Shown one piece after another: positions 7,529-23,596 of a DNA stretch of 64,000 nt. A program made the translations under genes and the position numbers. Below the pieces are notes generated by a model. The model saw only the letters and a list, made by a program, of their open reading frames with translations, searched no databases and was not told the origin of the DNA. The stretch is from Deltaproteobacteria bacterium. Its GTDB lineage: Bacteria > Desulfobacterota > GWC2-55-46 > UBA9637 > GWC2-42-11. Within the stretch, counting starts at the first letter, position 1, and every line of letters starts with the position of its first letter. The DNA is taken from the NCBI GenBank assembly GCA_016234925.1, contig JACRNI010000011.1, forward strand, positions 2,666-66,665. Reading direction: 5' to 3'.

Positions 7529-8499
7529 GCAAAAATCAGCGGGGCAACAATGCTTGCGTCTGATTCAATAATAAATTTAGGGGTATCTATCCCTAATTTG
7601 CCCCAAGTGATTTTTTCATTTGGAATAGCCCCGGAATATGAGCCGTAACTCGTGGTTGAATCTGATATTTGACAGAAGTATGACCAGAAAGGAACATCCT
7701 TCCAGCCTAAATCCTGATACATCATCGGCACAACGCAAATCGGAAAATCTCCGGCAATCCCGCCGCCGATTTGGAAAAAGCCCACGCCTTTTCCTCTGGA
7801 ATTTTTCTTATACCAGTCAGCAAGCCACACCATATATTCAATCCCTGATTTTACAGTAGAAGGTTTTAAATCTCCTTTTATGCAATAAGAGGCAAAAATA
7901 TTACCCATTGTAGAGTCTTCCCATCCGGGACAGACAATCGGCAGATTTTTCTCTGCTGCTGCAATCATCCAGCTGTTTTTTGGGTCTATCTCGTAATATT
8001 GCTCCATATCTTTTGAGAGAAGCATCTTATACATAAACTCATGAGGGAAATATCTCTCCCCCTTCCCTTCCGCAGTTTTCCATTGTTTGTAAATGCGCTT
8101 TTGTATCCTGCGGAATGCCTCCTCTTCAGGGATGCATGTGTCTGTCACACGGTTATACCCTTTCTCCATCAACTCCCATTCCTGCTGCGGGGTTAAATCT
8201 CTATAATTCGGAACGCGTTTATAATTCTTATGAGCGACCAGATTCATAATATCTTCTTCCAGATTAGCCCCTGTGCATGAGATGATATGCACCTTGTCCT
8301 GCCGTATCATTTCTGCTAATGAAATTCCAATCTCAGCAGTGCTCATGGCCCCGGCAAGCGTAATCATCATCTTGCCTTTTTTGCCGAGGTGCTTATCATA
8401 TGCCTTAGCAGCATCAACCAATGCTGCGGCGTTAAAATGCAGATAGTGCCTTTCTATAAATTGTGAAACAACGCCATTCTTCTTTGATTTTTTCTTCAT
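7510..8499 (-). CDS. Deoxyhypusine synthase family protein (DHS-like; possibly homospermidine-forming)
   Basis: 329 aa; NAD-binding DHS fold motifs ISCTGANLEEDI, FFQIGGGIAGDF; overlaps agmatinase start. Confidence 0.7.
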   Translation of the reverse strand: MKKKSKKNGVVSQFIERHYLHFNAAALVDAAKAYDKHLGKKGKMMITLAGAMSTAEIGISLAEMIRQDKVHIISCTGANLEEDIMNLVAHKNYKRVPNYRDLTPQQEWELMEKGYNRVTDTCIPEEEAFRRIQKRIYKQWKTAEGKGERYFPHEFMYKMLLSKDMEQYYEIDPKNSWMIAAAEKNLPIVCPGWEDSTMGNIFASYCIKGDLKPSTVKSGIEYMVWLADWYKKNSRGKGVGFFQIGGGIAGDFPICVVPMMYQDLGWKDVPFWSYFCQISDSTTSYGSYSGAIPNEKITWGKLGIDTPKFIIESDASIVAPLIFAWVLGW

Positions 8500-9570: not shown

Positions 9571-10728
9571 TTACCCTTTCATTGCCTCTATCAAAACCCT
9601 TGCAACCTCTGGTCTTGAAAACTCAACAGGCGGGATCTGTCCTGCCTTTAACATTTCCCTTACCTTTGTGCCGGATAAGGCAATATGGTGGCTGGAATCA
9701 TGCGGGCAGCTCTTGTAAGATGCCATGCTCTCGCATTTTTTGCAGTAGAATGTATGGTCAAAAAAGAGCGGTGTTATGCCGATTTCCTGAGGGTCAAACT
9801 CGTCAAATATATAATGAGCGTCAAATGAGCCGTAATAATTGCCGACCCCTGCATGGTCCCTGCCAACAATAAAATGCGTGCAGCCGTAGTTTTTTCTTAT
9901 GAGCGCATGGAATATCGCCTCTTTCGGGCCTGCATATCTCATTGCCGCTGGAAGCACAACAAGGGCAGTCCTGTCCTTTGGATAATAGTTTTCAAGCAAA
10001 ACTTCGTAACACTTCATCCTCACATCAGCAGGTATGTCATCGCCCTTTGTCTCGCCTACAATCGGATGGATCATAAGCCCGTCAACTACCTCCAATGCGC
10101 ATTTCTGAATGTATTCATGCGCCCTGTGTATCGGATTTCTTGTCTGAAAACCAACGACCCTTTTCCAGCCTTTTTCTTTGAAAAGATGCCTTGTCTCTTT
10201 AGGGTCAAGCCTGTATTTTTTAAAGTCCTCCTGCTTTACCCTGTGTATGACTGACACCTTGCCTCCAAGAAGCATGTCCCCCATTTCAAAAACCTTTGCA
10301 ACACCCGGATGCGCCGTGTCCTTTGTGCCGTAGACCTGAACAGCCTCTTTTTCTTTGTCATGGCTATGCTTTTCTTCAATGTGAAGAACTGCTAAAATCT
10401 CGCCCTGTTTATTGACAAGGCTTACTTCCTCGCCTTGTTTTAGATTCTTTGCCTCGTCTTTTGTAACTGATAAAGTAACTGGTATTGTCCAAGGAAGACC
10501 ATTTGACAGTTTCATATTGTCCATGACGTTGTGATAATCATCCTTTTTCATAAACCCTTCGAGAGGACTGAATGCGCCTATTGCAATCATCTCAAGGTCA
10601 GACACCTCTCTGTCATTGAGATGCACCTTCTTTAGTTTTTTTGTCTTTTCTAAAAGTGCTTCCCTTTCCTTTCCTTCCAAAATCCTGTTTACAAGTTTGC
10701 CGCCATGCGGCTCGATTAAACCTAGCAT
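9571..10728 (-). CDS. sat: Sulfate adenylyltransferase (ATP sulfurylase)
   Basis: 385 aa; [11 protein letters not shown] and GRDHAGVG motifs. Confidence 0.9.
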
Positions 10729-10759
10729 TATTTATGCCTCCTTTTTTGAATACAGGTAG

Positions 10760-10813
10760 AGGTATAGGTAAAGTAAAAGATATTTTCCTCTACCTATACC
10801 TGTTTTACTTATG
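10760..10813. repeat. Word-hairpin intercistronic element (arms built of GGTAGAGGTATAGGTA words around an A/T loop)
   Basis: ACAGGTAGAGGTATAGGTA ... CCTCTACCTATACCTGT imperfect inverted repeat between sat and cysH. Confidence 0.5.
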
Positions 10814-11521
10814 TATCCCGCACTCCTTCTTTTCATCCTCTTTATTAAACCACCGCCACCTGCCTGAGCGGGGCGGTTCGCCTTTAACAAGAGGCGTTGA
10901 GCATATTATGCAGCCGATAGAGTCATAGCCCATATCAAAGAGTTTATTATACGGCAAATCATTTTCCTTTATATATTGCCAGATTTTTGCCATATCCCAG
11001 TCAGCAAGAGGATTTATTTTTAAGATTTTTCTGTTTTCTTCATCAATAATCTCTGCCTTTGGAACAGTTTTTCTATAATCTGACTGGTCTCTTCTAAGTC
11101 CTGTTATCCAAACATCAAGTGTTTTGAGCGCGCGTTTATTCGGTTCAACCTTTCTAACAAAACAGCAGTATTCCTGCTTTGCCTTGTCCATAAAAAAGAG
11201 ATACTCGCCGAATCTTTCAATCATATTCTTTAATGCGTTCTCATCAGGAAAATATCTTTCAACAGTCAAAACATATTTTTCTTCTGTATTATTGATTGCC
11301 TCATATGTCTCTGGATGAAGGCGAAGCGTGTCAATTGTAAAGCCCCTGAACTTTTTTGCACACCTGCTGGCAATATCAATAATCACAGTCCCTGTTAATT
11401 GAAAACTTGTGCCTATCGCGCACCTTTCACCAAACTCATCAAATGCCCATTTAATGAGTTCTTCTGCAGGCATTGCATTTAATTTTTTAAGTGTATCTTT
11501 TGTAATATCTTCAATCTTCAT
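10805..11521 (-). CDS. cysH: Assimilatory APS/PAPS reductase, Fe-S type (CysH family)
   Basis: 238 aa; PAPS-reductase fold plus cysteine pairs EYCCFVRKV and C-terminal KECGIH typical of 4Fe-4S APS reductases. Confidence 0.85.
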   Translation of the reverse strand: MKIEDITKDTLKKLNAMPAEELIKWAFDEFGERCAIGTSFQLTGTVIIDIASRCAKKFRGFTIDTLRLHPETYEAINNTEEKYVLTVERYFPDENALKNMIERFGEYLFFMDKAKQEYCCFVRKVEPNKRALKTLDVWITGLRRDQSDYRKTVPKAEIIDEENRKILKINPLADWDMAKIWQYIKENDLPYNKLFDMGYDSIGCIICSTPLVKGEPPRSGRWRWFNKEDEKKECGIHK

Positions 11522-11527
11522 AGTTAA

Positions 11528-12640
11528 TTATATTTCAATCCCCGATACTGCCGATACTGCTGACACTACCATGTTTCTGCCTCTGCTCTTGCCCAGATAC
11601 AAAGCCTTATCCGCATAATCAATAAGTTTGATTGCAGATTTGGCGTCATCGGGCCATGTGGCAACGCCGATAGTAACTGACACCATTCCACTCGGCTGAT
11701 TCTCTCCGCCCTTGTATTTGCTGCCCTCTACAGCCTTTCTGAGTTTTTCAGCAACCACTACTGCCCTATTATTGGGTGTCTCAGGAAGAAGACAGATAAA
11801 CTCCTCTCCGCCGTAGCGGGCGACAACATCCGCTGTCCTTAATTTATCAATCAATAGTTTTGCCGTCTGTTTAATCGCATCATCGCCCAACAAGTGGCCA
11901 TTCTTGTCATTGAAGTTTTTAAAGTGGTCAATATCTATCATAAGAACAGAAAAATGTTTTTTGTACCGCTTTGCCCTTGATAATTCCTTTTCAATGTAAT
12001 CAAAAAAGTATCTGCGGTTGTACATGCCTGTCAACTCGTCCCGCATGGATATATCTCTGGCATTTTTATAGATATATGCCTTCTCAACTGCTATTGCTAT
12101 CTGCTGCGCCACCTCTGTAAAAAATTTTACATCATTCTCATTAAATGAGTTTGGCTGCGCCTTGTGTATATTAAAAACACCGAGGATATTCCCATGCTTG
12201 CCAACCAATGGGACGCAAAGAAATGCGCCGATATTTGTCGCAGCGCCCTTATAAAACATGGACTTGGGTTCTTTGCTTACATCCTGCACCAGAACAGGCT
12301 TGCCTGTCTTTGCTGCCATGCCTGATATTCCCTCGCCTATTTTAAGGCATATGCACGGCAATACAACAGGGTCCGGATACCATGCCCTTACTACAAGTTC
12401 ATTGGATGTTTCATCCAGCAGCATAATGCAGAATTCATCAATACGAAGAGACTTGCCAATAGTGTCTATGGTTCCATTGAATATCTCTTCTATGCCGATG
12501 CTTAAATTAAGCACCTTGCTGATGTTGTAAAGCGAATAGATTTCTAAGACCCTGGCATCAAGTTCATTATTCAGCCTTTCCAACTCATCCCTTTCAGATT
12601 TGAGCCTTTCAAGTTCTTTAGCAATATCTTTCGCAGCCAT
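11528..12640 (-). CDS. GAF-domain diguanylate cyclase (GGDEF)
   Basis: 370 aa; N-terminal coiled coil, GAF-like region, and a GGDEF domain with RYGGEEF active-site motif. Confidence 0.85.
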   Translation of the reverse strand: MAAKDIAKELERLKSERDELERLNNELDARVLEIYSLYNISKVLNLSIGIEEIFNGTIDTIGKSLRIDEFCIMLLDETSNELVVRAWYPDPVVLPCICLKIGEGISGMAAKTGKPVLVQDVSKEPKSMFYKGAATNIGAFLCVPLVGKHGNILGVFNIHKAQPNSFNENDVKFFTEVAQQIAIAVEKAYIYKNARDISMRDELTGMYNRRYFFDYIEKELSRAKRYKKHFSVLMIDIDHFKNFNDKNGHLLGDDAIKQTAKLLIDKLRTADVVARYGGEEFICLLPETPNNRAVVVAEKLRKAVEGSKYKGGENQPSGMVSVTIGVATWPDDAKSAIKLIDYADKALYLGKSRGRNMVVSAVSAVSGIEI

Positions 12641-12648
12641 TATTACCT

Positions 12649-13260
12649 CTAAAACTTCACATATTCCTTTTTCTCAAGATAACTAATTATAGTCCTTGTT
12701 GACTCTTCAATTGACATCTTTGATGTATCAATTGTCAGTTCAGGGTTCAAAGGCTCTTCATACGGCGCTGATATGCCTGTGAATTCCTTGACCTCTCCAA
12801 GTCTTGCCTTTTTGTAAAGCCCTTTTGTATCCCTCTGTTCACAGACCTCTATCGGACACTTTACATACACCTCTATAAATTCGCCTTGTTTTTGAAGTTT
12901 TCTTGCATTATCTCTATCAGCCATGTATGGCGATATGAATGCTGTTATTGTGATGATATTTGCATCTGTAAATAGTTTTGCAACCTCGCCGATTCTGCGG
13001 ATATTTTCAGACCTATCCTCTGGCGAGAAGCCCAGATTCTTATTCAAGCCATGACGAATATTATCGCCGTCCAATATATATGCCTGATGTTTGTTTTCTA
13101 ACAAGGCATGTTCCAGTTCAACAGCAATGGTTGATTTTCCTGAGCCTGAAAGCCCTGTGAGCCATATTGTCACACCTTTCTGCTTCATCAACTTTATCCT
13201 GTCCTCTTTTGTAATCTTCCCATGATGCCATTTTATGTTTGTAGATTTTTGATTAGTCAT
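12649..13260 (-). CDS. cysC: Adenylylsulfate (APS) kinase
   Basis: 203 aa; P-loop [11 protein letters not shown] and [16 protein letters not shown] motif. Confidence 0.9.
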
Positions 13261-13505: not shown

Positions 13506-13994
13506 TTATTCCTCAAACACCTCAATCTTGCAAGATGCCCTTTCAACCAGTTCATCAACTATTGATTTTGAAAAATATTTTAAAAATACTGAACGTTTTC
13601 TTTTTATTGCCACTGCTGTATCAATCTTGTATCTTTCAATCACATCAAGAGACTTTTCAACAAAATCGCCCTGTGTTGTAACTGCGTCAAAATCAACATT
13701 CTCTTCCATTGCCCTGATTTGAACCTTGCCCATCTCCTCATAGCCGCGCTGCCGATACTCCTTCATTATAGCCTCTGTGAGTTGGGTTGAAGGCTTGTCG
13801 CCGATAAAACCTATGTCTGTAAATTTATCAAAAATCTCCTGAGTAAGTTCAGTCTCAATTATATAAAGGACAACGAGTTTTGCCTTTTCCTTTTTTGCAA
13901 GATTAACAGCATATTCAATTGCATCCTGCGATGTCCTTGATGTTGACAAAATTAAAAGTATATTTTTCATATCTTTATCCCCAAAATAGGCCAA
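13506..13994 (-). CDS. Universal stress protein-like (adenine nucleotide alpha-hydrolase fold)
   Basis: 162 aa; alternating hydrophobic beta-strand pattern NILLILSTS...KLVVLYII typical of UspA, but weak. Confidence 0.45.
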   Translation of the reverse strand: MAYFGDKDMKNILLILSTSRTSQDAIEYAVNLAKKEKAKLVVLYIIETELTQEIFDKFTDIGFIGDKPSTQLTEAIMKEYRQRGYEEMGKVQIRAMEENVDFDAVTTQGDFVEKSLDVIERYKIDTAVAIKRKRSVFLKYFSKSIVDELVERASCKIEVFEE

Positions 13995-15394
13995 TAAACT
14001 TTAGCCATAATATTGAAAACTATCCATGCGGTTATCATCATCACAATCCCTGCCTTTGCCATATCTCTTGCTGTAATATATCCAGATGAAACTGCTATTG
14101 CATTTGCAGGCGTTGACATTGGAAAACAAAATGCCAGACCTGCCGGAATTGCTATGGCATATGTAATAATCTGCGGGTCAAGATTAAATCTGCCTGCCAT
14201 GCCTATGCTGACAGGAAGCAAAATTGCTATAACAGCGGCATTGCTCATCCCCTCTGTTAAAAGGATTGTTAAAAGGGAAAATACCGCTATAACAAGAACA
14301 GGGCTGTTTGCCCAATCACCAATCACTGTATTTGCAAGCCATGCTGCTGCGCCTGATTTTTCCATTGCCGCGCCTAACGTTATAGCGCCGCCATACATAA
14401 GTATTATGCCCCAGTTGACATATTCCTCTATGTCTTTCCATCGGACAAGTTTTAATACGAATAATGCAACAACTGCGATGATTGCAATATTTGCAATACC
14501 TGCCATTCTGCTAAACAAAAGCCATGAAGATATGGTTATGAGCATCAAAATGCCGACAGCATATTCAGTATAACCCATCTTGCCAAGCCCTTTTATCTTT
14601 CTTGCAAACACATCTTTTGCAAGATGTATGTCCTGTATATCCTGCGGAAAAAATCTTGTAAGGCCGATGTAGCCTATAAAAAGCAGAATTACTACTGTTG
14701 GAAACACAACCATTGTGTATTCAAAAAAACCAATGGTTATACCTGTCGCCTCCTTGAGCATGCCAGCAGCAAGCGGAACCCTTGCGCCGCCCAAAAATGT
14801 CGCAACACCTCCGATTACACAGCCCCATGCAAGCGCGAGAAAAAGCGACTTTGCATAGTTTGACTTACCGGGTTTCAGATTCAAGCCCTTTGCAATCTCA
14901 AGCACTATCGGGAAAAGCATTGCGGCAACTGCATGTTCTGACATAAAAAACGACAAAACCGCTGCAAGTAAAAATATTGACGCAAGAAGTCCCTTCGGCG
15001 TATTCCCAAACCTATCCATTATTAGAACTGCAATCCGGCTCGCCAATCCTGAATGCATAACAGCAGCAGAAAGTATGAATGCGCCGAGTATAAAAAATAC
15101 TGCCTCATTTCCAAAGAGCGCATATGCCGCCTTTTTATCCATAACACCCAATAAAGGCACCATCACAATCGCCATAAGGCTTGTAATTGCAAGAGGCAGG
15201 GCATCTGTTACCCAGAGTATAAGACATACAACAAAAAGCGCCAATGCCCTCTGCCCTTGAATTGTAAGCCCGGAAGGTGTAGGGATATTTATGAGATACC
15301 AGAATATAAAACCAAGGGCTAAAAAAAATATGGGTCTTAATGACCTTACTAAAACTATTACCCAAATTGGTCTTCTGTCTATGATTACCTTCAT
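13967..15394 (-). CDS. Anion permease of the ArsB/NhaD/DASS superfamily, putative sulfate/anion transporter
   Basis: 475 aa, about 12-14 predicted TM helices, internal duplicated halves; sulfate-assimilation context. Confidence 0.6.
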   Translation of the reverse strand: MKVIIDRRPIWVIVLVRSLRPIFFLALGFIFWYLINIPTPSGLTIQGQRALALFVVCLILWVTDALPLAITSLMAIVMVPLLGVMDKKAAYALFGNEAVFFILGAFILSAAVMHSGLASRIAVLIMDRFGNTPKGLLASIFLLAAVLSFFMSEHAVAAMLFPIVLEIAKGLNLKPGKSNYAKSLFLALAWGCVIGGVATFLGGARVPLAAGMLKEATGITIGFFEYTMVVFPTVVILLFIGYIGLTRFFPQDIQDIHLAKDVFARKIKGLGKMGYTEYAVGILMLITISSWLLFSRMAGIANIAIIAVVALFVLKLVRWKDIEEYVNWGIILMYGGAITLGAAMEKSGAAAWLANTVIGDWANSPVLVIAVFSLLTILLTEGMSNAAVIAILLPVSIGMAGRFNLDPQIITYAIAIPAGLAFCFPMSTPANAIAVSSGYITARDMAKAGIVMMITAWIVFNIMAKVYWPILGIKI

Positions 15395-15397
15395 AAA

Positions 15398-16621
15398 TTA
15401 TCCCTCACCTACCTCCCTGACCCTCAATTTCCTCCGCAAAGTAGAAAGCCCCCAAACTGTCTTCAGTCCAAGTTTTGACTTGTAAAACTTATGCATCATT
15501 GTTTTGAATCTTGACATATCCCCTGTAAAAAACATCGCCTCAATGGGCGTTGTTATAACGCTGATGTCTCTCACCCAGTTCATGTTTATCCTGTTCTTTT
15601 TAACAGCATGATATAGATGCTTGTAAACAGGGGCAATCTCATCAAGAGAAGGTATTTTATATGAAAGAAGTTTCACGCTGCTCACGGGTCTATAAATCGG
15701 AAGTATAGGCACAACGCCAAGGTCTGTAAGAAAATCTATCCCCCTCATTGTTGATTCTGCCGGCTCAAGCCCGACAATAAGATTAGATGCGACAGTGCCG
15801 TTTGGAAAAACCTTTGCAGCATATTTAAGCGCATTTATATATCTGTTTCTGCCAATCAGTTCATCCCTCCCCGGGCATATCTCCTTAAAAAGTTTTTCAT
15901 CAAATATCTCCATATTGTAAAGCACAGAATCAGCGCCAACCGCATATGTTTCGTCTATAAACTTGTTCTCCTTTGGCGGAAGCGCCTCAACAGCAACAAT
16001 GGTGTTAAAATGTTTCTTGATTGCCTTTATATAAGGCTTTAAAAATTCTATGCCGCCGTCAGGCGTTTCTGAAAAACCAATTGAAAGATAGACAATCTCT
16101 GCCTTGCCTTCTTTGTATGCAGCCTCAACAGTTTCAAGAACCTCCTCAACACTATAAACTACACCGCCCTTTGAATTAAAATTCCCTGCACAGTATCTGC
16201 ACTCTATATTCATGTTGAAAAACTCGCACCTTGTGTCAGGCGTGATTGCAACATAACTGCCGTGCATATTGCCGATTTTTGAAAGCGGAATGCCTGTCGT
16301 TGTTTTCAGTTTATAAAAATCAGGTTTTGGTATGATTTTGACCTTAACAGATTCCCCCTCTCTTTTTATGAATGCCTTTCCATCTTTCTGGATAAGTTCA
16401 TAAGGAGAATTCTTTGCAAAATCCTCAAGAAAAGGCGCATTTACCCATGTCTTATAAGGCAATATTATGTCAAGCCCGCCTGTAATGCCTGTATAGCCTG
16501 TAGAAAGGTCTATGCCCAGACTCTTAACAGCGTTTTCATTAAGCCTTATACCGCAAAGCATAAGGTCTATCTTTAAATAACCGGGGTTGTGGAGATATGT
16601 CTTTGTTTTTTTCATAAACAA
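15398..16621 (-). CDS. Radical-SAM-like TIM-barrel protein with non-canonical Cys triad (C-x8-C-x2-C), function unknown
   Basis: 407 aa; CEFFNMNIECRYCAG in place of CxxxCxxC, followed by a radical-SAM-like downstream pattern (GKAEIVYLSIGFSETPDGG ... ASNLIVGLEPAES). Start abuts the ThiF stop (16621/16622). Confidence 0.55.
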   Translation of the reverse strand: MFMKKTKTYLHNPGYLKIDLMLCGIRLNENAVKSLGIDLSTGYTGITGGLDIILPYKTWVNAPFLEDFAKNSPYELIQKDGKAFIKREGESVKVKIIPKPDFYKLKTTTGIPLSKIGNMHGSYVAITPDTRCEFFNMNIECRYCAGNFNSKGGVVYSVEEVLETVEAAYKEGKAEIVYLSIGFSETPDGGIEFLKPYIKAIKKHFNTIVAVEALPPKENKFIDETYAVGADSVLYNMEIFDEKLFKEICPGRDELIGRNRYINALKYAAKVFPNGTVASNLIVGLEPAESTMRGIDFLTDLGVVPILPIYRPVSSVKLLSYKIPSLDEIAPVYKHLYHAVKKNRINMNWVRDISVITTPIEAMFFTGDMSRFKTMMHKFYKSKLGLKTVWGLSTLRRKLRVREVGEG

Positions 16622-17443
16622 TCATGTGCTGCATTTTGCAGCCTGTATCTCGCAAGCCTGCTCATACATAACCAAATCCTTTACTGTCGGATTATCTCCG
16701 CATAATGCACACTGGGTATCCCTTCTTACCTTTACTTTCCTGAATGTCATGGCAAGCGCATCAAATATAAGAAGATGTCCTGCGAGTTCATCACCTATTT
16801 TTAGAATCTGTTTTATTGCTTCTACTGCCTGAATAACGCCGATTACACCAGCGAGCGCTCCTAAAACACCTGCCTCCTGACAACTTGGCACAAGCCCTTT
16901 TGGAGGAGGCTCTGGATAAAGGCATCTGTAGCAGGGCTTTCCTTCATGCGGCTTGAATATTGTCACCTGTCCGTCAAACCTGAACATACTGCCTGACACA
17001 AGGGTCTTTTTTTCAAAAAAACATGCATCATTCATTAAATACCGCGTTGGAAAATTATCGCTGCCGTCAAGGATAACATCATAGTCTCTTATAATCTTTC
17101 TTATATTATCAATGCCAAGACGCTCGTTATAGACAATAACCTTGACATCAGGATTCAAGCCTTCAATAGATTTTTTAGCAGATTCTACCTTTGGCATCCC
17201 AATCTTTTCAGTAGAGTGAATTATCTGCCTTTGAAGGTTAGATAAGTCAACACAGTCAGCATCGGCAATGCCGATTGTGCCTATACCTGCAGCAGCAAGA
17301 TAATAAAGCGCCGGCGAACCAAGCCCGCCTGCGCCAAGCACAAACACCTTTGCGTCTAATAATTTAGCCTGACCCTTGCCGCCGACCTCAGGAAGAATTA
17401 TATGCCTTGAATATCGCTCTATTTGTTCTTCTGTAAAGTTCAT
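16622..17443 (-). CDS. ThiF/MoeB/MoeZ-type E1-like sulfur-carrier adenylyltransferase
   Basis: 273 aa; nucleotide-binding VLGAGGLGSPALYYLAAAGIGTIGIAD and zinc CxxC pairs CYRC ... CALC. Confidence 0.85.
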   Translation of the reverse strand: MNFTEEQIERYSRHIILPEVGGKGQAKLLDAKVFVLGAGGLGSPALYYLAAAGIGTIGIADADCVDLSNLQRQIIHSTEKIGMPKVESAKKSIEGLNPDVKVIVYNERLGIDNIRKIIRDYDVILDGSDNFPTRYLMNDACFFEKKTLVSGSMFRFDGQVTIFKPHEGKPCYRCLYPEPPPKGLVPSCQEAGVLGALAGVIGVIQAVEAIKQILKIGDELAGHLLIFDALAMTFRKVKVRRDTQCALCGDNPTVKDLVMYEQACEIQAAKCST

Positions 17444-17453
17444 AATTTAAATA

Positions 17454-17546
17454 CAGTTAAGGAGTTTAAGAGTTGTGGAGTTGAGGGATTTTTTTATTTT
17501 TAAGTTTTTAACTCCTAAACTCTTGAACTCTTCAACTCTTAAACTG
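17454..17546. repeat. Word-hairpin element (ACAGTTAAGGAGTT words), 3' flank of JAMM gene
   Basis: AATACAGTTAAGGAGTTTAAGAGTTGTGGAGTTGAGGG-ATTTTTTTATTTTT-AACTCCTAAACTCTTGAACTCTTCAACTCTTAAACTGTTTCT. Confidence 0.55.
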
Positions 17547-17946
17547 TTTCTATTTCCTCTTCCCTAAACGGCTCTCCTTCATTTTCAAATGTCCATGACT
17601 TCACTGAAACATCTTTTCCATTTTGCACAGCGACAATCACATATGAATAAAACGGCCATGCCCTTTGCCTGTCAAAATCAGATGGTCTGTCAGGATGGTC
17701 AGGATGGGAATGAAAAAAACCAATCACCTCAAAACCATCTTTTTTCGCCTCTTTTTCAACCCTTAATAAATCCTTTGGGTTTATCTCATACCTGTCATTC
17801 GCCCTTTCTTTATTTATATTCTCCAGAGGATAAATCTTTGTAATCTTTTTGTCCTTGCCAACCAATGCGCCGCAGCCCTCGCAAGGGTAGGATTTTTTTG
17901 CATGGCTGATGATTTCGTTGTAAATTTTCTGTGATAGATGTAACAT
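17539..17946 (-). CDS. JAMM/MPN+ metalloprotease (Mec+/CysO-cleaving-type)
   Basis: 135 aa; JAMM motif FHSHPDHPDRPSDFD (HxHx7SxxD) and upstream EGCG. Confidence 0.8.
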   Translation of the reverse strand: MLHLSQKIYNEIISHAKKSYPCEGCGALVGKDKKITKIYPLENINKERANDRYEINPKDLLRVEKEAKKDGFEVIGFFHSHPDHPDRPSDFDRQRAWPFYSYVIVAVQNGKDVSVKSWTFENEGEPFREEEIETV

Positions 17947-18060: not shown

Positions 18061-19059
18061 CTACTCCCACAACACAGTTGACAGATACCTGTCCCCGCCG
18101 TCAGGGAATATAACAACAATTACACCCTCTTCTAATTCCTTTGCAGCCTGAAGCGCACCCCACATTGCAGCGCCTGACGACTGCCCCACAAAAAGCCCTT
18201 CCTCCATTGCAAGCCTCTTTGCCATATCATATGATTCCTCTGTTGGCGCAGAAATCTTTTTATCAAGTTTATCTTCATGATATATGCCCGGGACAATGGA
18301 TGAAGGCATATGTTTTAAACCCTCAAGCCCATGCAGCGCTGTTGCTGGCTCAACTGCAATGATCTGTATGTCCGGATTGAACTCCTTTAATCTCCTGCCT
18401 GTTCCCATTATTGTCCCGCCTGTTCCTATGCCTGCGACAAGATGTGTTATCCTGCCGTCTGTCTGCTCTATAATCTCCACCCCTGTTGTGTCGTAATGCG
18501 CCTGCGGATTTGATGGATTATTATACTGGTCAAGTTTGCAGTATTTATCAGGACTGTCAACATACATCTTCCATGCAAGCCTTATTGCGCCGTCAGAGCC
18601 TTCCATTGGATTTGAATAAACCGTGTTTGCGCCGAAAGCCTTTAAAATCTTTTTTCTTTCATTGCTGACATTTTGCGGAACAACAAGTTCAACCTGATAA
18701 CCCTTAACAGCGCCAATCCATGCATATGCAATGCCTGTGTTGCCGGATGTTGAGTCAAGTATAATCTTGTCCTTTGTAAGCCTTCCTGCCTCTTCTGCAT
18801 CCTTTATCATCTTTAGCGCTGCTCTATCTTTAACAGAGCCTCCCGGATTATAAGATTCAATCTTCGCATAAATCTCGACACCTTTGCTTAAACCCTGTGC
18901 AATCCTATTTATTTTAACCAGAGGGGTATTGCCTACAAGTTCCAAAACAGAGGTCTTTGGCAATTTATAACCCCAGTTTATGATTTGTTTTAGATTATTC
19001 ATATTAAACCTTTCCGAGTAATGTAGTATATATCTTTGCTCCAAAAATGGTAGCCGCAA
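18061..19059 (-). CDS. cysM: Cysteine synthase B-like PLP enzyme (CysM-type, likely sulfur-carrier dependent)
   Basis: 332 aa; PLP lysine region GSVKDRAAL, glycine loop [20 protein letters not shown] as called probably starts too far upstream. Confidence 0.8.
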   Translation of the reverse strand: MRLPFLEQRYILHYSERFNMNNLKQIINWGYKLPKTSVLELVGNTPLVKINRIAQGLSKGVEIYAKIESYNPGGSVKDRAALKMIKDAEEAGRLTKDKIILDSTSGNTGIAYAWIGAVKGYQVELVVPQNVSNERKKILKAFGANTVYSNPMEGSDGAIRLAWKMYVDSPDKYCKLDQYNNPSNPQAHYDTTGVEIIEQTDGRITHLVAGIGTGGTIMGTGRRLKEFNPDIQIIAVEPATALHGLEGLKHMPSSIVPGIYHEDKLDKKISAPTEESYDMAKRLAMEEGLFVGQSSGAAMWGALQAAKELEEGVIVVIFPDGGDRYLSTVLWE

Positions 19060-19102
19060 CCTTTAGGTTGCGTTACCTACGCAGGCTAAAACCTGCGGCT
19101 AC
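19050..19102. repeat. REP-like two-hairpin element (GTAGCCG outer stem enclosing two hairpins)
   Basis: GTAGCCGCAACCTTTAGGTTGCGTTACCTACGCAGGCTAAAACCTGCGGCTAC; overlaps and supplies the last codons of cysK. Confidence 0.65.
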
Positions 19103-20011
19103 CGAATTTTCATGCACCCTTTCGCATGTATCAGGCAAAATAACCACAATAAGTTTCCCTTTGGAATCAGTTCTTTTTGCAATATCCAGCGCAGCAAAAA
19201 CTGCTGCGCCTGATGATATACCGCAGAGAATGCCCTCTTCCTTTATCATCCTTTTTGTCATATTTAATGCATCCTCATCTGAAACCTGCATCACCTCATC
19301 TATAATAGATATATTAAGTATTTGAGGCACAAATCCAGCGCCTATGCCGGAAATCTTATGCGCCCCTGCCTGACCGCCTGAAAGAACAGGAGATTTTTTT
19401 GGTTCAACTGCAATCGCCTTAAAACACGGCTTTCTCTTTTTAATAACCTCTCCAATACCTGTGATTGTGCCTCCTGTTCCAATACCTGCCACCAAAATAT
19501 CAACCTTTCCGTCAGTATCATTCCAGATTTCCTCTGCTGTAGTCCTTTTGTGAATATCAGGATTTGCAGGATTCTTAAACTGCTGAGGTATATATGAATT
19601 TGAAACCTTTTTTGAAATTTCCTCTGCCTTCAAAATAGCGCCCTTCATGCCTTCTGACGCAGGTGTCAAAACAACCTCTGCGCCAAACATCTTAAGAAGA
19701 GAGAGCCTTTCAATGTCAACAGTTTCAGGCATTGTAAGAATCAACTTATAACCTCTTGCAGCGCAAACAAATGCAAGCGCAATGCCTGTATTTCCTGATG
19801 TCGGCTCAATAATCGTTGTATTATTATTTATTAACCCTGCCCTCTCGCCTGCCTCAATCATACTTACAGCAATCCTGTCTTTGACGCTGTTTAAAGGATT
19901 AAATGACTCCAGTTTTGCGGCAACCTCCGCCTTTATACCCTTTGTCACCCTGTTCAATCTGACAAGCGGTGTATTGCCTATTGTCTCTGTGATGTCGTTA
20001 AATATCCGCAT
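19073..20011 (-). CDS. cysK: Cysteine synthase A (O-acetylserine sulfhydrylase)
   Basis: 312 aa; SVKDRIA PLP-lysine motif, [17 protein letters not shown]-terminal 13 residues are encoded by the REP-like element. Confidence 0.85.
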
Positions 20012-20227: not shown

Positions 20228-20464
20228 TTATTCTATTATATCAAGTTCAATAGGCTCTACCTTTACGCCTTTTTCAATAAAATAATTTATTGCCTTTTCT
20301 ATTTCCTGTGGTTCTCCGTCCAGTTCAAGCGCAACAAGACCAATGCTTTCGGAAACAGTCGCCTGTCTTATGTTTGTTACAACCTTATACAGTTTTCCAG
20401 CCTGATAAATAAGCGGCTCTTTTATCAATTCTTTTGGAAATGTAAGGTAAAATCTCTTTTTCAA
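20228..20464 (-). CDS. Small NIL-domain-like protein (MetO/MA1822-like ferredoxin-fold partner of sulfur-carrier pathways)
   Basis: 78 aa; pattern LTFP...EPLIYQ...LVALELDGEPQEIEKAINYFIEKGVKVEPI resembles NIL domains. Starts at a TTG overlapping the carrier stop (ATGTTTTGA). Confidence 0.4.
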   Translation of the reverse strand: MKKRFYLTFPKELIKEPLIYQAGKLYKVVTNIRQATVSESIGLVALELDGEPQEIEKAINYFIEKGVKVEPIELDIIE

Positions 20465-20742
20465 AACATCCCTCCGGCAATTGCAGGGATGATTGAAATC
20501 TCATCCCCATCCTTTAATTCTGTATCAATGCTGTTTTTAAACCTTATGTCCTCATCATTGACATAGATGTTCACAAAGCGTCTTATCTTGCCGTCATCTT
20601 CACAAATCCTTTCTTTAAGACCGGGGTATTGTTTTTCAATATCATTTATAAGGTCTTTAATATTTTTACCCCCTCCTTCTACTTCATCCTTGCCATTCGT
20701 AAGTTTCCTGAGCGGTGTTGGAATTCTGACTTTAATTGCCAT
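20461..20742 (-). CDS. ThiS/MoaD/CysO-like sulfur carrier with C-terminal GG followed by a 2-residue extension (…AIAGG-MF)
   Basis: 93 aa; beta-grasp-like pattern and terminal IIPAIAGGMF. The extension implies a need for proteolytic exposure of the GG, with the JAMM protease nearby. Confidence 0.65.
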   Translation of the reverse strand: MAIKVRIPTPLRKLTNGKDEVEGGGKNIKDLINDIEKQYPGLKERICEDDGKIRRFVNIYVNDEDIRFKNSIDTELKDGDEISIIPAIAGGMF

Positions 20743-20810: not shown

Positions 20811-21062
20811 TTACCGTTTTTCTATCTTCAACCTAAAATGATCGCCTTCTTTTTTGACCTCAACAATCTTATGTCCTTCTTCCTTGATGCTCTTTGGGAC
20901 ATTCTGAATCGGCTCGCCGTCATCTATAACAATCTCTAACACCTGACCTTTTTCCATCATCTCCAACTGCAATTTTGTTTTAACAAAATTTATAGGACAT
21001 AGAACATTTCTTAAATCAAGTGATTTGTCAGCCTTAATATCCATTTCATTTTGCTCCTGCAA
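20811..21062 (-). CDS. TusA/SirA-like sulfurtransferase
   Basis: 83 aa; LDLRNVLCPINF resembles the TusA CPxP motif region; overlaps sulfite reductase stop. Confidence 0.6.
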   Translation of the reverse strand: MQEQNEMDIKADKSLDLRNVLCPINFVKTKLQLEMMEKGQVLEIVIDDGEPIQNVPKSIKEEGHKIVEVKKEGDHFRLKIEKR

Positions 21063-22002
21063 CTATCTCGCCGCTCTTAAATGCGCCTGTCATAAACTTC
21101 ATATAACTTTCAACGCCAACCCTGTCAATGGTTGAACCAATCCTCTCGCCCCTTTTGCCATTCTCTTTATACCATTCAATGGTCTTTTGTATGACATCTG
21201 ACACCTTATCATCAGGAATAAATACCGCCGCCTCATTTGCCTCTCTCGGATGTCTGCCGTGCTTGCCGCCTACCCTTACAAAATGCCCGTATCTCTTTGC
21301 CTTCCATGACTCTGTCGGGCACGCCCTTATGCAGTCCCCGCAGTATATGCACTTTTCTGCATCATATATCGGTTTGCCTGTCTCCTGATGAGATACAATA
21401 GCGCCTTCTTTGCAAGCCCTTGAGCATATTGTGCATCCTGTGCATGTGTCCTCATCCCATATCGGCTCAACAACGCCCTGAAAACCCAAATCAGCCTCAC
21501 GGGTCCTTGCGCAGTCAATCGGACAGCCTGAAAATGACATCTTAAACTTATGATGCGTTGGAGTGCCGAAGAATTTTTCATCAACCATCTCTGCCATCTT
21601 CTGCGTATCTGTAAGACCATTTGGATTATATTCGCACCCGCCGCATGCAGTGGGCACCCTCACCCTTGGCCCGCATGACGCAACCTTGTGGTCAACCTTT
21701 GCCAAATCCGAGGTCAGATTATCAAAGTCCTTGTAATCAACATACAGAATCTCCAATGACTGCCTGAAACTTAAATGAACAACCCCTTTTTTGCTGTATT
21801 TATCAGCAATCTTCGCAAGTTCAATGAGTTTTTTTGTTGTGAGCCTTCCGCCGGGACAGCGCAGCCTTACTGTAAATAAATCCTTTTGCCTCTGCTTTAT
21901 AAAACCGCCGGACTTTAGCTCATTAAAGTCAACCTTAACCTCCTGTCCCTCTTTTTTAACAGGCACACGGGTTATCTTATCCTCTATAAAATGGTCAGCC
22001 AT
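21046..22002 (-). CDS. Small siroheme-[4Fe-4S] sulfite reductase with embedded 2x[4Fe-4S] ferredoxin domain (AsrC/assimilatory low-MW type)
   Basis: 318 aa; nitrite/sulfite reductase cysteines (ACGGCEYN, SFSGCPIDCA) plus ferredoxin motifs CTGCTICSRAC and CIYCGDCIRACP. Confidence 0.7.
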   Translation of the reverse strand: MADHFIEDKITRVPVKKEGQEVKVDFNELKSGGFIKQRQKDLFTVRLRCPGGRLTTKKLIELAKIADKYSKKGVVHLSFRQSLEILYVDYKDFDNLTSDLAKVDHKVASCGPRVRVPTACGGCEYNPNGLTDTQKMAEMVDEKFFGTPTHHKFKMSFSGCPIDCARTREADLGFQGVVEPIWDEDTCTGCTICSRACKEGAIVSHQETGKPIYDAEKCIYCGDCIRACPTESWKAKRYGHFVRVGGKHGRHPREANEAAVFIPDDKVSDVIQKTIEWYKENGKRGERIGSTIDRVGVESYMKFMTGAFKSGEIVAGAK

Positions 22003-22059: not shown

Positions 22060-23313
22060 TTATGCCTTCACAGCATAGACCTTGCCTTCTTTTGCCACAA
22101 GTTCATCAAATTCAGCAAGCCTTGCATTGATTGTTCTTGGCGCCCCAATCCTTCCAACAAGCGCCTCCTGTGTCTTTAACCCATTGCCTGTTATAGACAC
22201 AACTATTGACTCATCTTTTGGTATCCTTCCCTGCTCAATCAATTTCTTTGCAACGGCTAAAGTTACACCGCCTGCTGTTTCAGCGAATATACCTTCTGTC
22301 TCAGCCAGAAGTTTCATTGCATCAATAATCTCTTCATCAGACACATCCTCGCCCCATCCGTTGCTCTCCCTCATAACCTTTGCTGAATAAAACCCGTCCG
22401 CAGGGTTTCCTATTGCAAGGGACTTTGCAATGGTCTTTGGCTTTACAGGCTTTATAAGTTCTGTGCCTTCTTTAACCGCTGTGGTAATAGGCGAGCAGCC
22501 TGTTGCCTGCGCGCCGTATACCTTTGTATTTAAACTGTCAACAAGCCCGAGTTTATGAAACTCCTTGAATGACTTCCAGATTTTTGTGATAAGCGAACCC
22601 CCTGCCATAGGCACAACAATATGTTTTGGAAGTTTCCACCCTAACTGCTCTGCAATCTCGTAGCCAAACGCCTTTGACCCCTCTGCATAGTAAGGTCTTA
22701 TATTTATATTAACAAATGCCCATCCGTATTTGCCTGCAATCTCGCTGCACAAACGGTTGACCTCATCATAATTTCCCTTTATTGCAATGACATTTGTGCC
22801 GTAAACAAGCGTCCCCATTACCTTTGTCTGCTCAAGGTCATGCGGGATAAAAACATAACTTTCCATGCCGCAGGCAGCGGCATTTGCAGCAACTGAATTC
22901 GCAAGGTTTCCTGTTGACGCGCATGCAACGATCTTGAAATCAAACTCTATTGCCTTTGATATTGCGACAGCAACAACCCTGTCTTTGAAAGAAAGCGTCG
23001 GATAATTAACAGCATCATTTTTTAAATACAATTCTTGGACGCCCAAAACCTTTTCAAGATTCTTTGCCCTTACAAGCGGTGTAAACCCGACATCCAAGCC
23101 AACCTTCGGTTCGCCGTCGATTGGAAGGAGTTCCTTGTATCTCCACATATTCGGCGGTCTTTTTGATATGATGTCTCTTGTTAAAGATTTCTTGATTTTT
23201 TCATAATCATAATTGACCTCAAGGGGACCAAAGCAATACTCGCACACATGGAGAGCCTCTTTTGGATACTCCTTGCCGCATTCCCTGCATTTAAGACCTT
23301 TTACATAACTCAT
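22060..23313 (-). CDS. thrC: Threonine synthase family PLP enzyme. Annotated by homology as ThrC, but placed behind a SAM riboswitch in a sulfur operon, so it may be a MetM-like homocysteine synthase.
   Basis: 417 aa; N-terminal Zn-ribbon CRECG...CEYC, PLP lysine FKDR, long ThrC-type fold. Confidence 0.75.
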   Translation of the reverse strand: MSYVKGLKCRECGKEYPKEALHVCEYCFGPLEVNYDYEKIKKSLTRDIISKRPPNMWRYKELLPIDGEPKVGLDVGFTPLVRAKNLEKVLGVQELYLKNDAVNYPTLSFKDRVVAVAISKAIEFDFKIVACASTGNLANSVAANAAACGMESYVFIPHDLEQTKVMGTLVYGTNVIAIKGNYDEVNRLCSEIAGKYGWAFVNINIRPYYAEGSKAFGYEIAEQLGWKLPKHIVVPMAGGSLITKIWKSFKEFHKLGLVDSLNTKVYGAQATGCSPITTAVKEGTELIKPVKPKTIAKSLAIGNPADGFYSAKVMRESNGWGEDVSDEEIIDAMKLLAETEGIFAETAGGVTLAVAKKLIEQGRIPKDESIVVSITGNGLKTQEALVGRIGAPRTINARLAEFDELVAKEGKVYAVKA

Positions 23314-23428: not shown

Positions 23429-23470
23429 ATAAAAAAGCCCCTTCTTGAAATTAAGAAGAGGCTTTTATTT
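23429..23470 (-). terminator. Rho-independent terminator/attenuator (expression platform of the SAM riboswitch)
   Basis: Minus-strand AAAAGCCTCTTCTTAATTTCAAGAAGGGGCTTTTTT: GC-rich stem followed by a U-tract, between riboswitch and start codon. Confidence 0.65.
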
Positions 23471-23475
23471 CCTAA

Positions 23476-23596
23476 TCTTATCTTTCAAGGCTTAAACTAA
23501 AAAACCTTGATGGAGTTAGCACCTAGTCATCCTGCATTTGCAGGATCGGTTGCTGTGGTTTCACAGGGCCATTCCCTCCGCCACTCTGGATAAGCA
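23476..23596 (-). promoter_or_regulatory. SAM-I (S-box) riboswitch
   Basis: Minus-strand CUUAUCCAGAGUGGCGGAGGGAAUGGCCCUGUGAAACCACAGCAACC ... GGUGCUAACUCC ... GAAAGAUAAG matches the S-box consensus (CUUAUCaAGAG-GG-GGAGGGA-GGCCC-UGAA-CC-GCAACC, GGUGCcAAuuCC, P1 closing AGAUAAG). Confidence 0.85.

Follow-up and report, generated by a model that had tools for sequence, protein, structure and literature searches.

Protein-thiocarboxylate routes to cysteine and homocysteine have only lately been entering pathway databases, and their sulfur-loading and regulatory steps are their least understood parts. The closest described systems are CysO-CysM-Mec-MoeZ of M. tuberculosis, HcyS-HcyD-HcyF-Sir-MetY of Wolinella and MetO-MetM-Mec-MoeZ of Streptomyces. 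To our knowledge, and as far as the GapMind summary of them goes, neither a radical SAM protein nor a dedicated DASS importer belongs to any of the described CysO, HcyS and MetO systems. The pathway that uses MetM, the carrier-thiocarboxylate-dependent homocysteine synthase, is summarised in the GapMind preprint.

The window analysed here, a 64,000-nucleotide stretch of contig JACRNI010000011.1 from a Deltaproteobacteria bacterium, holds every part of these systems in one operon (Table 1), in the order MetM-like, Sir, TusA, ThiS, NIL, CysK, CysM, JAB, ThiF, gene X (the subject of this analysis), DASS symporter and Usp, with the sulfate-activation genes beyond. The thiocarboxylate-pathway part list in Pfam and NCBIfam terms is complete (a carrier with its Gly-Gly, a JAB protein, an E1, and PLP enzymes of the CysM and MetM types), and by gene content the operon is thus predicted to be a CysO/MetO-type protein-thiocarboxylate pathway; it also has a C-terminal extension on its ThiS-like carrier, a MetM-like ThrC homologue and a sulfite reductase. 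The neighbours named in the initial annotation (ThiS-like carrier, JAB/JAMM protein, CysM-like enzyme, CysK, sulfite reductase and ThiF E1) were all confirmed by Pfam and NCBIfam. Since the carrier ends in GG-MF, it should need C-terminal trimming, and no specific signal was found in the ThiS extension, which varies from 0 to 8 residues or is replaced by fusion of ThiS to NIL. Against the MoeB/MoeZ models the E1 aligns with the E1 portion alone and, unlike MoeZ, it has no rhodanese domain. A SAM-I (S-box) riboswitch also lies upstream at three other loci (L003, L007 and L053), which include two related MAG loci and Mariprofundus. Neither the operon riboswitch nor the tight link between gene X and the symporter had been mentioned in the initial annotation.

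Table 1. Features of the gene X operon and of the adjoining sulfate-activation block (positions in the window).
Feature	Position	Strand	Remarks
SAM-I riboswitch (RF00162, 80.1 bits)	23475..23596	-	leader of the whole operon, then a terminator-like hairpin
Threonine-synthase-like PLP enzyme, N-terminal zinc ribbon	22060..23313	-	candidate MetM
Small sulfite reductase (NIR_SIR + ferredoxin insert)	21046..22002	-	AsrC/DsrAB-like
TusA sulfur-relay protein	20811..21062	-	
ThiS/MoaD-family sulfur carrier	20461..20742	-	ends in ...PAIAGG-MF
Stand-alone NIL-domain protein, 78 aa	20228..20464	-	start overlaps ThiS stop
CysK (cysteine synthase A)	19073..20011	-	Pfam/NCBIfam
CysM-like PLP enzyme (cysteine synthase B type)	18061..19059	-	Pfam/NCBIfam
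JAB/JAMM metalloprotease (Mec/HcyD-like)	17539..17946	-	Pfam/NCBIfam
ThiF/MoeB-type E1 adenylyltransferase, 273 aa	16622..17443	-	without rhodanese domain
Gene X, variant radical-SAM-fold protein, 405 aa	15398..16615	-	
Cysteine-triad codons of X, C130-x8-C139-x2-C142, CEFFNMNIECRYC	16190..16228	-	computed from ATG 16615
C-terminal helix motif of X, WGLSTLRRKLRV, residues 388-399	15419..15454	-	marks the ThiS/DASS-linked subfamily
DASS-family Na+-coupled anion (putative sulfate) symporter	13967..15394	-	starts 3 nt after X stop
Universal stress protein (Usp) domain protein	13506..13994	-	downstream of symporter
APS kinase	12649..13260	-	sulfate activation (block 9571..13260)
GAF-GGDEF protein	11528..12640	-	in sulfate-activation block
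PAPS/APS reductase	10805..11521	-	sulfate activation
ATP sulfurylase	9571..10728	-	sulfate activation

Gene X had been described as a 407-aa open reading frame at 15398..16621 that abuts the ThiF/MoeZ-type E1 gene. Those coordinates hold for the maximal frame, which lies on the minus strand (the plus-strand frame was rejected because it is riddled with stops) and opens at a TTG at 16621 that directly meets the TGA of the ThiF-family gene at 16622. The true start is probably the ATG at 16615, which gives a 405-aa product beginning MKKTKTYLHNPG, because the identical database protein P0001 also has 405 aa and homologues have N-termini that agree with it. The protein is laid out as an N-terminal beta-domain (residues ~1-125) that is private to the X group, a radical SAM barrel (~120-320) and C-terminal helices. 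Its AlphaFold2 model has a pTM of 0.82, with low pLDDT at the C-terminal helix motif, and a Pfam search up to E = 10 gave no match for the N-terminal domain (residues 1-128) or the C-terminal region.

X scores above the cutoffs of two radical SAM profiles, PF04055 (36.5 bits against 29.5, residues 137-283) and NF045502 'variant_rSAM' (207.8 bits against 125, model positions 3-357 of 357). Its fold matches LipA, HydG, ThiH and BioB, the top matches being the sulfur-inserting LipA and BioB, and it has a (beta/alpha) TIM-barrel core (partial and full barrels both being counted); by sequence ThiH is its only PDB match (E = 0.004 over ~115 residues). These profile and model matches bear out the superfamily assignment of the initial annotation and show that X truly has the radical-SAM fold, in the LipA/BioB/ThiH/HydE structural class. 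Could it instead be no more than a TIM-barrel hydrolase, or an artefact of annotation, in which the cysteines are incidental? The Pfam score is indeed modest and some homologues are without the cysteines, but the NF045502 match, the fold matches to radical SAM enzymes and the conserved motifs (below) effectively refute this reading, to which we give almost no credence. A SPASM domain, for which the initial annotation had suggested a search, was not found by Pfam or NCBIfam, and X has no cysteine after residue 247.

Judged by its profile match, X belongs to the catalogued, functionally uncharacterised 'variant rSAM' family. The C-x8-C-x2-C spacing, which had been thought unrecognised, is in fact already listed at RadicalSAM.org for the CX8CX2C megaclusters 4-6-1, -3, -5 and -6 (PMC9477430), where the motif shared with X is catalogued without function, and an NCBI HMM for the family exists. 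The N-terminal beta-domain and the LRRxLRV helix in the tail show, at the level of sequence, that the X group is a distinct orthologous group in this family; the ThiS/DASS-linked subgroup is set apart from the rest of NF045502 and the megaclusters by these two elements, by gene fusions and by triad loss (both below), and we found no functional account of it in the literature. What is new here is the SAM-riboswitch operon, its synteny over about 40 loci, the DASS and JAB fusions and the loss of the triad in a context that is kept.

The nearest named family is MSMEG_0568 (TIGR04043; COG2516 'biotin synthase-related'), but the X score of 119.6 bits (residues 58-344) against a cutoff of 303.7 bits means that X is not a member; JGI labels some X homologues 'biotin synthase-related radical SAM'. 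MSMEG_0568-family genes lie in Nit1C-type clusters with nitrilase, GNAT and AIR-synthase-like genes (PMC1199592) and, unlike X, have no ThiS or DASS link. Equivalog HMMs of full-barrel radical SAM enzymes give X only 16-28 bits against cutoffs of 230-430 (lipA 19.2 against 310, LipS1 20.6 against 230, LipS2 24.7 against 270 and thiH 21.2 against 380). X differs from lipoyl synthase, biotin synthase, ThiH, HydG and HydE in its Cx8 loop (theirs is Cx3), in its extra N- and C-terminal elements and in having no auxiliary-cluster cysteines, as none of its cysteines beyond the triad is universally conserved. We think it quite improbable that X is an ordinary biosynthetic radical SAM enzyme for something else, such as a cofactor needed by the pathway, that is merely co-transcribed. 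Its weak HMM similarity to CofH, MqnC/E, LipS1/2, ThiH, LipA and HydE would fit, as would the unrelated Nit1C-type context of its MSMEG_0568 relatives and the Mur-ligase/Ldh_2 context of its nearest outgroup member (P0163); but all the cofactor-enzyme scores are far under their cutoffs, the invariant ThiF-X-DASS position with its DASS and JAB fusions is unlike passive co-location, and the cluster has been lost within the same context. The unrelated context of the outgroup member also indicates that the ThiS link is specific to the LRRxLRV subfamily.

X has five cysteines (C21, C130, C139, C142 and C247), of which C130, C139 and C142 are presumably the [4Fe-4S] ligands; the cluster loop they form is five residues longer than that of canonical CxxxCxxC. 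By our own arithmetic, a 405-residue protein with five cysteines should contain a C-x8-C-x2-C by chance about 7e-4 times, but the conservation of the triad is stronger evidence than this low expectation: the exact spacing is present in 118/120 homologues at 53-100% identity, and 118/119 have a tyrosine before the last triad cysteine (C139-R-Y-C142 in X). The initial annotation had staked its proposal on conservation of these cysteines, which holds among the close homologues and fails in several lineages that are without the triad in the same ThiS/JAB/CysM context. G180, N234 and E236 (YNxE) and V281-G282-L283-E284 (VGLE) are invariant among close, triad-bearing homologues and, in a manual alignment of sequences, line up with the SAM-binding motifs of LipA and BioB. 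The triad, the aromatic before its last cysteine, YNxE and VGLE are conserved together in ~240 clusters from two phyla-level groups.

The order JAB-ThiF-X-DASS-Usp is kept in ~35 loci at 53-100% identity, and the operon synteny in ~40; related loci were collected by an alignment search of metagenome contigs, which gave 42, and by a single-protein search of genome contigs, which gave 2. X occurs in Delta-/Thermodesulfobacteriota-type MAGs and in the sampled genomes of cultured Mariprofundus and Ghiorsea. X and DASS genes, which are separated by 3 nt in the window, overlap start to stop at other loci. In the Zetaproteobacteria they are fused, in no fewer than 120 protein clusters; the cultured genera are among them, for instance Mariprofundus ferrinatatus (CP018800.1), and 119 of 120 fusion clusters keep the triad (118 as Cx9Cx2C and one as Cx8Cx2C). 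JAB and X are fused in one lineage, where the fusion gene adjoins ThiF and ThiS, and there are minimal clusters of ThiS-JAB-X and PALP-ThiS-JAB-X. At three loci (L042, L052 and L055) X stands with ThiS and JAB and has no adjacent transporter, and for two proteins (P0126 and P0138) the context is limited to contigs of 1.3-1.5 kb. ThiS is a partner in every X context seen. The tie to a ThiS-type carrier system proposed in the initial annotation is conserved at about 40 loci. More distant variant rSAM relatives are fused to ATP-grasp ligases. Gene order and fusions show that X is tied to the importer by translational coupling or by fusion, and that one lineage joins it to the JAB protease of the carrier cycle; on the same comparative evidence, the X group is a constant part of a module that is repressed through a SAM riboswitch and is predicted to import sulfate (DASS), reduce it and load a ThiS-type carrier for cysteine and homocysteine synthesis of the CysM and MetM types. 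X is a widespread, conserved extra component, found in none of the described thiocarboxylate systems, and has clear Rosetta-stone links to importer and carrier cycle alike.

Does X handle the sulfur itself? As a sulfide chaperone, the open iron of its three-cysteine [4Fe-4S] cluster would take hydrosulfide from the sulfite reductase and pass it on to ThiS in its acyl-adenylate form on the E1, which lacks rhodanese; free H2S would thereby be avoided. Its likeness would be to TtuA and Ncs6, sulfur transferases that depend on a [4Fe-4S] cluster, and to type II BioB in its [4Fe-5S] state. All E1s seen beside X are without rhodanese (the others are 270-275 aa, and the L055 C-terminus shows none), X has the E1/carrier genes on one side and the sulfate-reduction genes on the other, its top fold matches insert sulfur, and such a chaperone might suit microaerophilic Fe(II) oxidisers, for which free sulfide is harmful. 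We nevertheless regard it as unlikely: TusA, joined in the Zetaproteobacterial loci by DsrE-like proteins, is already an obvious relay candidate, sulfide binding needs no conserved SAM-binding-type motifs, X is without auxiliary-cluster ligands and has no universally conserved cysteine to carry a persulfide, and the scheme is impossible in lineages without the cluster. C247, considered as a persulfide or E2-like cysteine, was dropped, since some members of the subfamily (P0123, P0124, P0128 and P0145) have A, L, Y or S in its place. It had looked invariant in one alignment.

In a rough neighbour-joining tree the triad has been lost in at least six lineages, and several lineages without it keep the same ThiS/JAB/DASS context; the triad-less sequences (P0150 is of this type) come from metagenomes. 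One such clade, of ~30 clusters, has also lost YNxE and VGLE, and its gene (X') sits in the order MetM-NIL-CysM-JAB-ThiS-X'-DASS-Usp. The residues common to all members of the group are non-cysteine ones (in the N-terminal helix, DGG, TYAxGxD, FPxG and the tail). These losses bear directly on the possibility that X is a functional radical SAM enzyme that acts on the ThiS-type carrier itself, at its Gly-Gly C-terminus, its C-terminal extension or a tethered amino acid (ThiS-Cys or ThiS-Hcy) before JAB release. This is a serious though tentative candidate, and if X is catalytic it would bring a new radical SAM reaction into primary sulfur metabolism. The wide conservation of the triad and SAM-site motifs, the constant presence of ThiS, the JAB-X fusion and the ATP-grasp fusions of distant relatives are all in keeping with it. 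The gene has nonetheless been retained in the same operon after repeated triad loss, an enzyme of a soluble carrier cycle would hardly be expected to be fused to a membrane transporter, the characterised CysO, MetO and HcyS pathways are not known to need a radical step (see also the GapMind summary), and one SAM per turnover would be costly in a SAM-repressed operon unless SAM acts catalytically. A carrier-directed radical enzyme is essentially what the initial annotation had proposed, and it is a strong rival to the reading that follows.

The reading that we favour, while allowing that it may well be wrong, is that X serves mainly as a coupling or adaptor subunit that links the sulfate importer with the carrier machinery, and that its [4Fe-4S]-SAM site is a low-flux switch and not a main pathway step. 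X would dock the carrier machinery (ThiS, JAB and ThiF) to the importer, and none of the stoichiometric steps by which sulfur is assimilated would be catalysed by it; in lineages that keep the [4Fe-4S]-SAM site, the switch might sense SAM (the pathway end product), sense Fe-S or redox state, or make a once-per-protein radical modification, and cluster-less lineages would keep the adaptor role only. The fusions, the overlaps and the fixed order with importer and carrier genes count for a coupling role, and the repeated loss of the triad in the same context, together with the non-cysteine nature of the universal residues, counts for a non-catalytic core. The riboswitch makes SAM the operon's physiological signal, and because SAM is the pathway end product its stoichiometric use for each sulfur would seem self-defeating. 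Against the adaptor reading, most lineages strictly conserve the triad and the SAM-type motifs, just as one would expect of an active radical enzyme, and the transporter fusions may equally reflect substrate channelling to an enzyme; the three loci without an adjacent transporter are not explained by a pure transporter regulator.

The nearest precedent for a non-catalytic role of this fold is HemW, a non-radical heme chaperone, and soluble domains are fused or coupled to sulfur-nutrient importers elsewhere, namely the NIL domain of MetN and the STAS domain of SulP/SULTR, which binds cysteine synthase. The likeness of X to all three is a functional analogy only, with no sequence or fold relationship in the case of NIL and STAS. 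We know of no radical SAM domain demonstrated to act as a ligand sensor. Should X prove to be a sensor or adaptor, this would be a rare non-catalytic use of the radical-SAM fold and a rare instance of sulfate uptake controlled at the protein level. A more specific form, which we rate as rather improbable, is that holo-X binds SAM at its [4Fe-4S] cluster without productive turnover and so shuts the DASS importer, sequesters ThiS, JAB and ThiF, or both, as an end-product sensor and gate that gives fast protein-level feedback atop the SAM riboswitch; if true, this would be the first radical-SAM fold serving as an allosteric sensor of a metabolite or of Fe-S status on a transporter. With Mariprofundus and Ghiorsea strains in culture, and with variants that naturally have no cluster, the role of X is directly testable.

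The open reading frame that the initial annotation placed at 15398-16621 exists, but on the minus strand, the plus-strand frame being full of stops. Its maximal form, from a TTG at 16621 directly after the TGA that ends the preceding ThiF-family gene (16622-17443), is 407 aa; the variant radical-SAM protein (X) likely starts at the ATG at 16615 (405 aa, N-terminus MKKTKTYLHNPG), because the identical database protein, P0001, is just as long and the N-termini of homologues agree with this start. The cysteine triad first noticed from the sequence alone is indeed there (CEFFNMNIECRYC, C130-x8-C139-x2-C142), and since 118 of the 120 best homologues (53-100% identity) have exactly Cx8Cx2C and 118 of 119 have a Tyr before the last triad Cys, it is a conserved feature and not a chance arrangement. 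With a divergent-homologue profile the single solved structure matched by sequence was ThiH (7pd1, E = 0.004), with whose CxxC the last two Cys align, so the variant loop is a 5-residue insertion between Cys 1 and Cys 2. Neither a second conserved Cys set nor a SPASM/twitch domain was found in the X sequence, with Pfam and NCBIfam, or in the homologue alignment.

Is X a radical SAM protein? It matches PF04055 (Radical_SAM, Pfam) at 36.5 bits (cutoff 29.5) and NF045502 ("variant_rSAM", NCBIfam) from end to end at 207.8 bits (cutoff 125); the next family, TIGR04043 (MSMEG_0568 type, Nit1C nitrilase clusters), gives 119.6 against a cutoff of 303.7, and the NCBIfam CofH, MqnC/E, LipS1/2, ThiH, LipA and HydE models give merely 16-28 bits. 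The AlphaFold2 model has a pLDDT of 79.9 and a pTM of 0.82, with low confidence exactly at the variant Cys loop and the C-terminal helices. At the level of sequence and predicted fold, X is a member of the radical SAM superfamily and of NF045502; the NCBIfam profile matches, fold matches and motif conservation refute a placement outside radical SAM altogether, to which we give next to no weight. X was also tried as a member of the MSMEG_0568, LipA/BioB, ThiH and SPASM families and belongs to none of them.

The spacing, unrecognised by the initial annotation, is not new: NCBI already has its variant_rSAM model, and there is the RadicalSAM.org paper (PMC9477430), which assigns CX8CX2C to Megaclusters 4-6-1, -3, -5 and -6 and catalogues CX4, CX5, CX6, CX7, CX9 and CX11 variants beside it. 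In a 1.84-billion-protein representative library (E <= 1e-10) the wider family has 942 representatives, whose Cys spacing is mostly x8, with extremes of x3 and x16; we found no account in the literature of the function of such proteins. Three distant members of a different subfamily (P0206, P0241, P0267) are fused to ATP-grasp ligase domains. Compared with the first view of X, the motif is less exotic and the context more interesting.

The operon that contains X joins sulfate uptake, activation and reduction to a protein-thiocarboxylate route to cysteine and homocysteine; such routes are summarised in the GapMind preprint (CysO/CysM/Mec type for cysteine, MetO/MetM type for homocysteine). The whole operon, from MetM to ATP sulfurylase, is SAM-controlled, being SAM-repressed via the predicted SAM-I riboswitch at its head.

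Features of the operon in transcription order
No.	Feature	Position	Strand	Score
1	SAM-I riboswitch + downstream terminator-like hairpin	23475-23596, hairpin ~23437-23470	-	RF00162, 80.1 bits, E 3e-17
2	Threonine-synthase-like PLP enzyme with zinc ribbon (MetM-like)	22060-23313	-	
3	Small sulfite reductase with ferredoxin insert, AsrC/DsrAB-like	21046-22002	-	
4	TusA	20811-21062	-	
5	ThiS/MoaD-type carrier, C-terminus AIAGG-MF	20461-20742	-	
6	NIL protein, 78 aa, stand-alone	20228-20464	-	
7	CysK	19073-20011	-	
8	CysM-like enzyme	18061-19059	-	
9	JAB protease	17539-17946	-	
10	ThiF/MoeB E1, 273 aa	16622-17443	-	
11	X	15398-16615	-	
12	DASS Na+-anion symporter, start 3 nt past X	13967-15394	-	
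13	Usp	13506-13994	-	
14	APS kinase	12649-13260	-	
15	GAF-GGDEF protein	11528-12640	-	
16	PAPS/APS reductase	10805-11521	-	
17	ATP sulfurylase	9571-10728	-	

The same riboswitch lies upstream of the MetM-like gene at the related loci L003 (90.9 bits), L007 (96 bits) and L053 of Mariprofundus ferrinatatus (59.5 bits; the single Zetaproteobacterial locus scanned). The GAF-GGDEF diguanylate cyclase gene sits among the sulfate-activation genes, between those for APS kinase and PAPS reductase, as it does in the closest relatives (L001, L009, L015, L016, L043); it is absent from more distant loci. In every case the gene before that of the NIL protein is the one for ThiS or MetM, and in L007 (6234-6749) NIL and ThiS make up a single fused protein; NIL domains occur elsewhere in MetN and the methanogen homocysteine pathway. 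The window, on a bacterial contig, also has a deoxyhypusine-synthase-family gene (7510-8499, minus strand) and a divergently transcribed FAD flavoprotein gene (FAD_binding_2/Succ_DH_flav_C; 23881-25488, plus strand) adjoining the riboswitch region.

The proposed tie of X to ThiS-type carrier genes is borne out by a neighbourhood census: ThiS is in every X context seen, and JAB, E1, PALP enzymes and DASS in most. All ~35 main-clade loci (X 53-100% identical) have JAB-ThiF-X-DASS-Usp-(APSK)-PAPS reductase-ATP sulfurylase, usually preceded by MetM-Sir-TusA-ThiS-NIL-CysM (one has a ThiS-NIL fusion and no Sir/TusA). Divergent X proteins that keep the triad are found as ThiS-JAB-X alone (L042) and PALP-ThiS-JAB-X (L052), and L055 reads ThiF-ThiS, a JAB-X fusion and a PHP phosphoesterase. 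The nearest relative without the C-terminal LRRxLRV helix motif (P0163) is flanked by Mur-ligase and Ldh_2 genes, so the ThiS/DASS link is specific to the LRRxLRV subfamily.

In Zetaproteobacteria X forms the N-terminal part of a single fusion protein with the DASS transporter (~875-885 aa); at least 120 protein clusters have this fusion (carriers include M. ferrooxydans, M. ferrinatatus, M. micogutta, M. erugo and Ghiorsea bivora), and the triad is Cx9Cx2C in 118/120. The gene order there is MetM-ThiS(AIAGG-C)-NIL-CysM-ThiF(274 aa), a Sir-TusA fusion, X-DASS and CysH-CysD-CysN, with no JAB protease in the L053 and L054 clusters. X is obligatorily linked to the ThiS carrier genes as well as to the DASS importer, and in places fused to each side; that it is an unrelated biosynthetic enzyme, merely co-located, seems very improbable. 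The Zetaproteobacterial ThiS end (L053 4942-5220, L054 5091-5369), as encoded, resembles the CysO-Cys product. The window sulfite reductase gene extends 17 nt into the beginning of the TusA gene, and the Zetaproteobacterial two-module NIR_SIR reductase and TusA form one 781-aa protein (L053 7626-9971), which hints that reduced sulfur may leave sulfite reductase as a protein-bound persulfide.

Triad conservation, expected across homologues, holds for the close ones and fails in several other lineages: a clade of ~30 protein clusters (P0150, P0270-P0291, P0178, P0246, P0198) has GGHRYL in place of the triad, has also lost the YNxE and VGLE motifs and 8 further residues by deletion, and has gained a CYH...NLCSH motif. 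Their context is nevertheless the same, MetM-NIL-CysM-JAB-ThiS-X'-DASS-Usp (X' being the triad-less homologue), with start-stop overlaps between X' and DASS genes. P0125, P0131, P0138, P0144, P0158, P0190 and P0201, with absent or partial triads, are dispersed among triad-bearing X on a rough neighbour-joining tree, which suggests, for metagenomic sequences on a distance tree, at least six independent losses. The residues common to all members are K15, L18 and G22 (N-terminal helix), G119, D186/G188, P214, Y224-A225-x-G227-x-D229, F270-P271-x-G273, G282, P303, W347 and R394-R395-x-L397-x-V399 (tail), none of them a Cys; C247 seemed invariant in one alignment and is not universal. As judged from sequence, then, most lineages conserve a cluster/SAM-type site in the radical-SAM fold, and the cluster has been lost repeatedly with genomic context retained.

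What might such a protein do? Strict conservation of the motifs, a ThiS partner in every context and the existence of a JAB-X protein would fit a true radical enzyme directed at ThiS, a reading only slightly less likely than the one that we favor. Radical chemistry is not known to be required anywhere in the described thiocarboxylate pathways, a cost of one SAM for each sulfur taken into metabolism would defeat the purpose of the operon, and X persists in place after cluster loss; for these reasons we tentatively favor X as a coupling or adaptor subunit linking the DASS importer to the carrier machinery. The [4Fe-4S]-SAM site of such an adaptor could be a low-flux switch, either as a sensor (of SAM, of Fe-S status or of redox state) or by occasionally modifying a protein. 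The window E1 matches the E1 part alone of rhodanese-containing MoeB/MoeZ models, and X might be a sulfide chaperone standing in for the missing rhodanese domain; however, TusA is already present and cluster-less clades exist, and we consider this doubtful. The question can be tested directly with the proteins of cultured Mariprofundus and Ghiorsea.

The subfamily's fixed place in SAM-riboswitch sulfate-assimilation/thiocarboxylate operons, its fusions to the DASS transporter and JAB protease, and its repeated cluster loss appear to be undescribed so far. Many members (P0121, P0125-P0127, P0131, P0137, P0138, P0141, P0158, P0161, P0295-P0297), the window X not among them, end after the LRRxLRV helix in [DE]-S-[FLYM]-[DTK]-S-[SA]-[GSEN]-L-COOH, a conserved peptide that looks like a docking motif.
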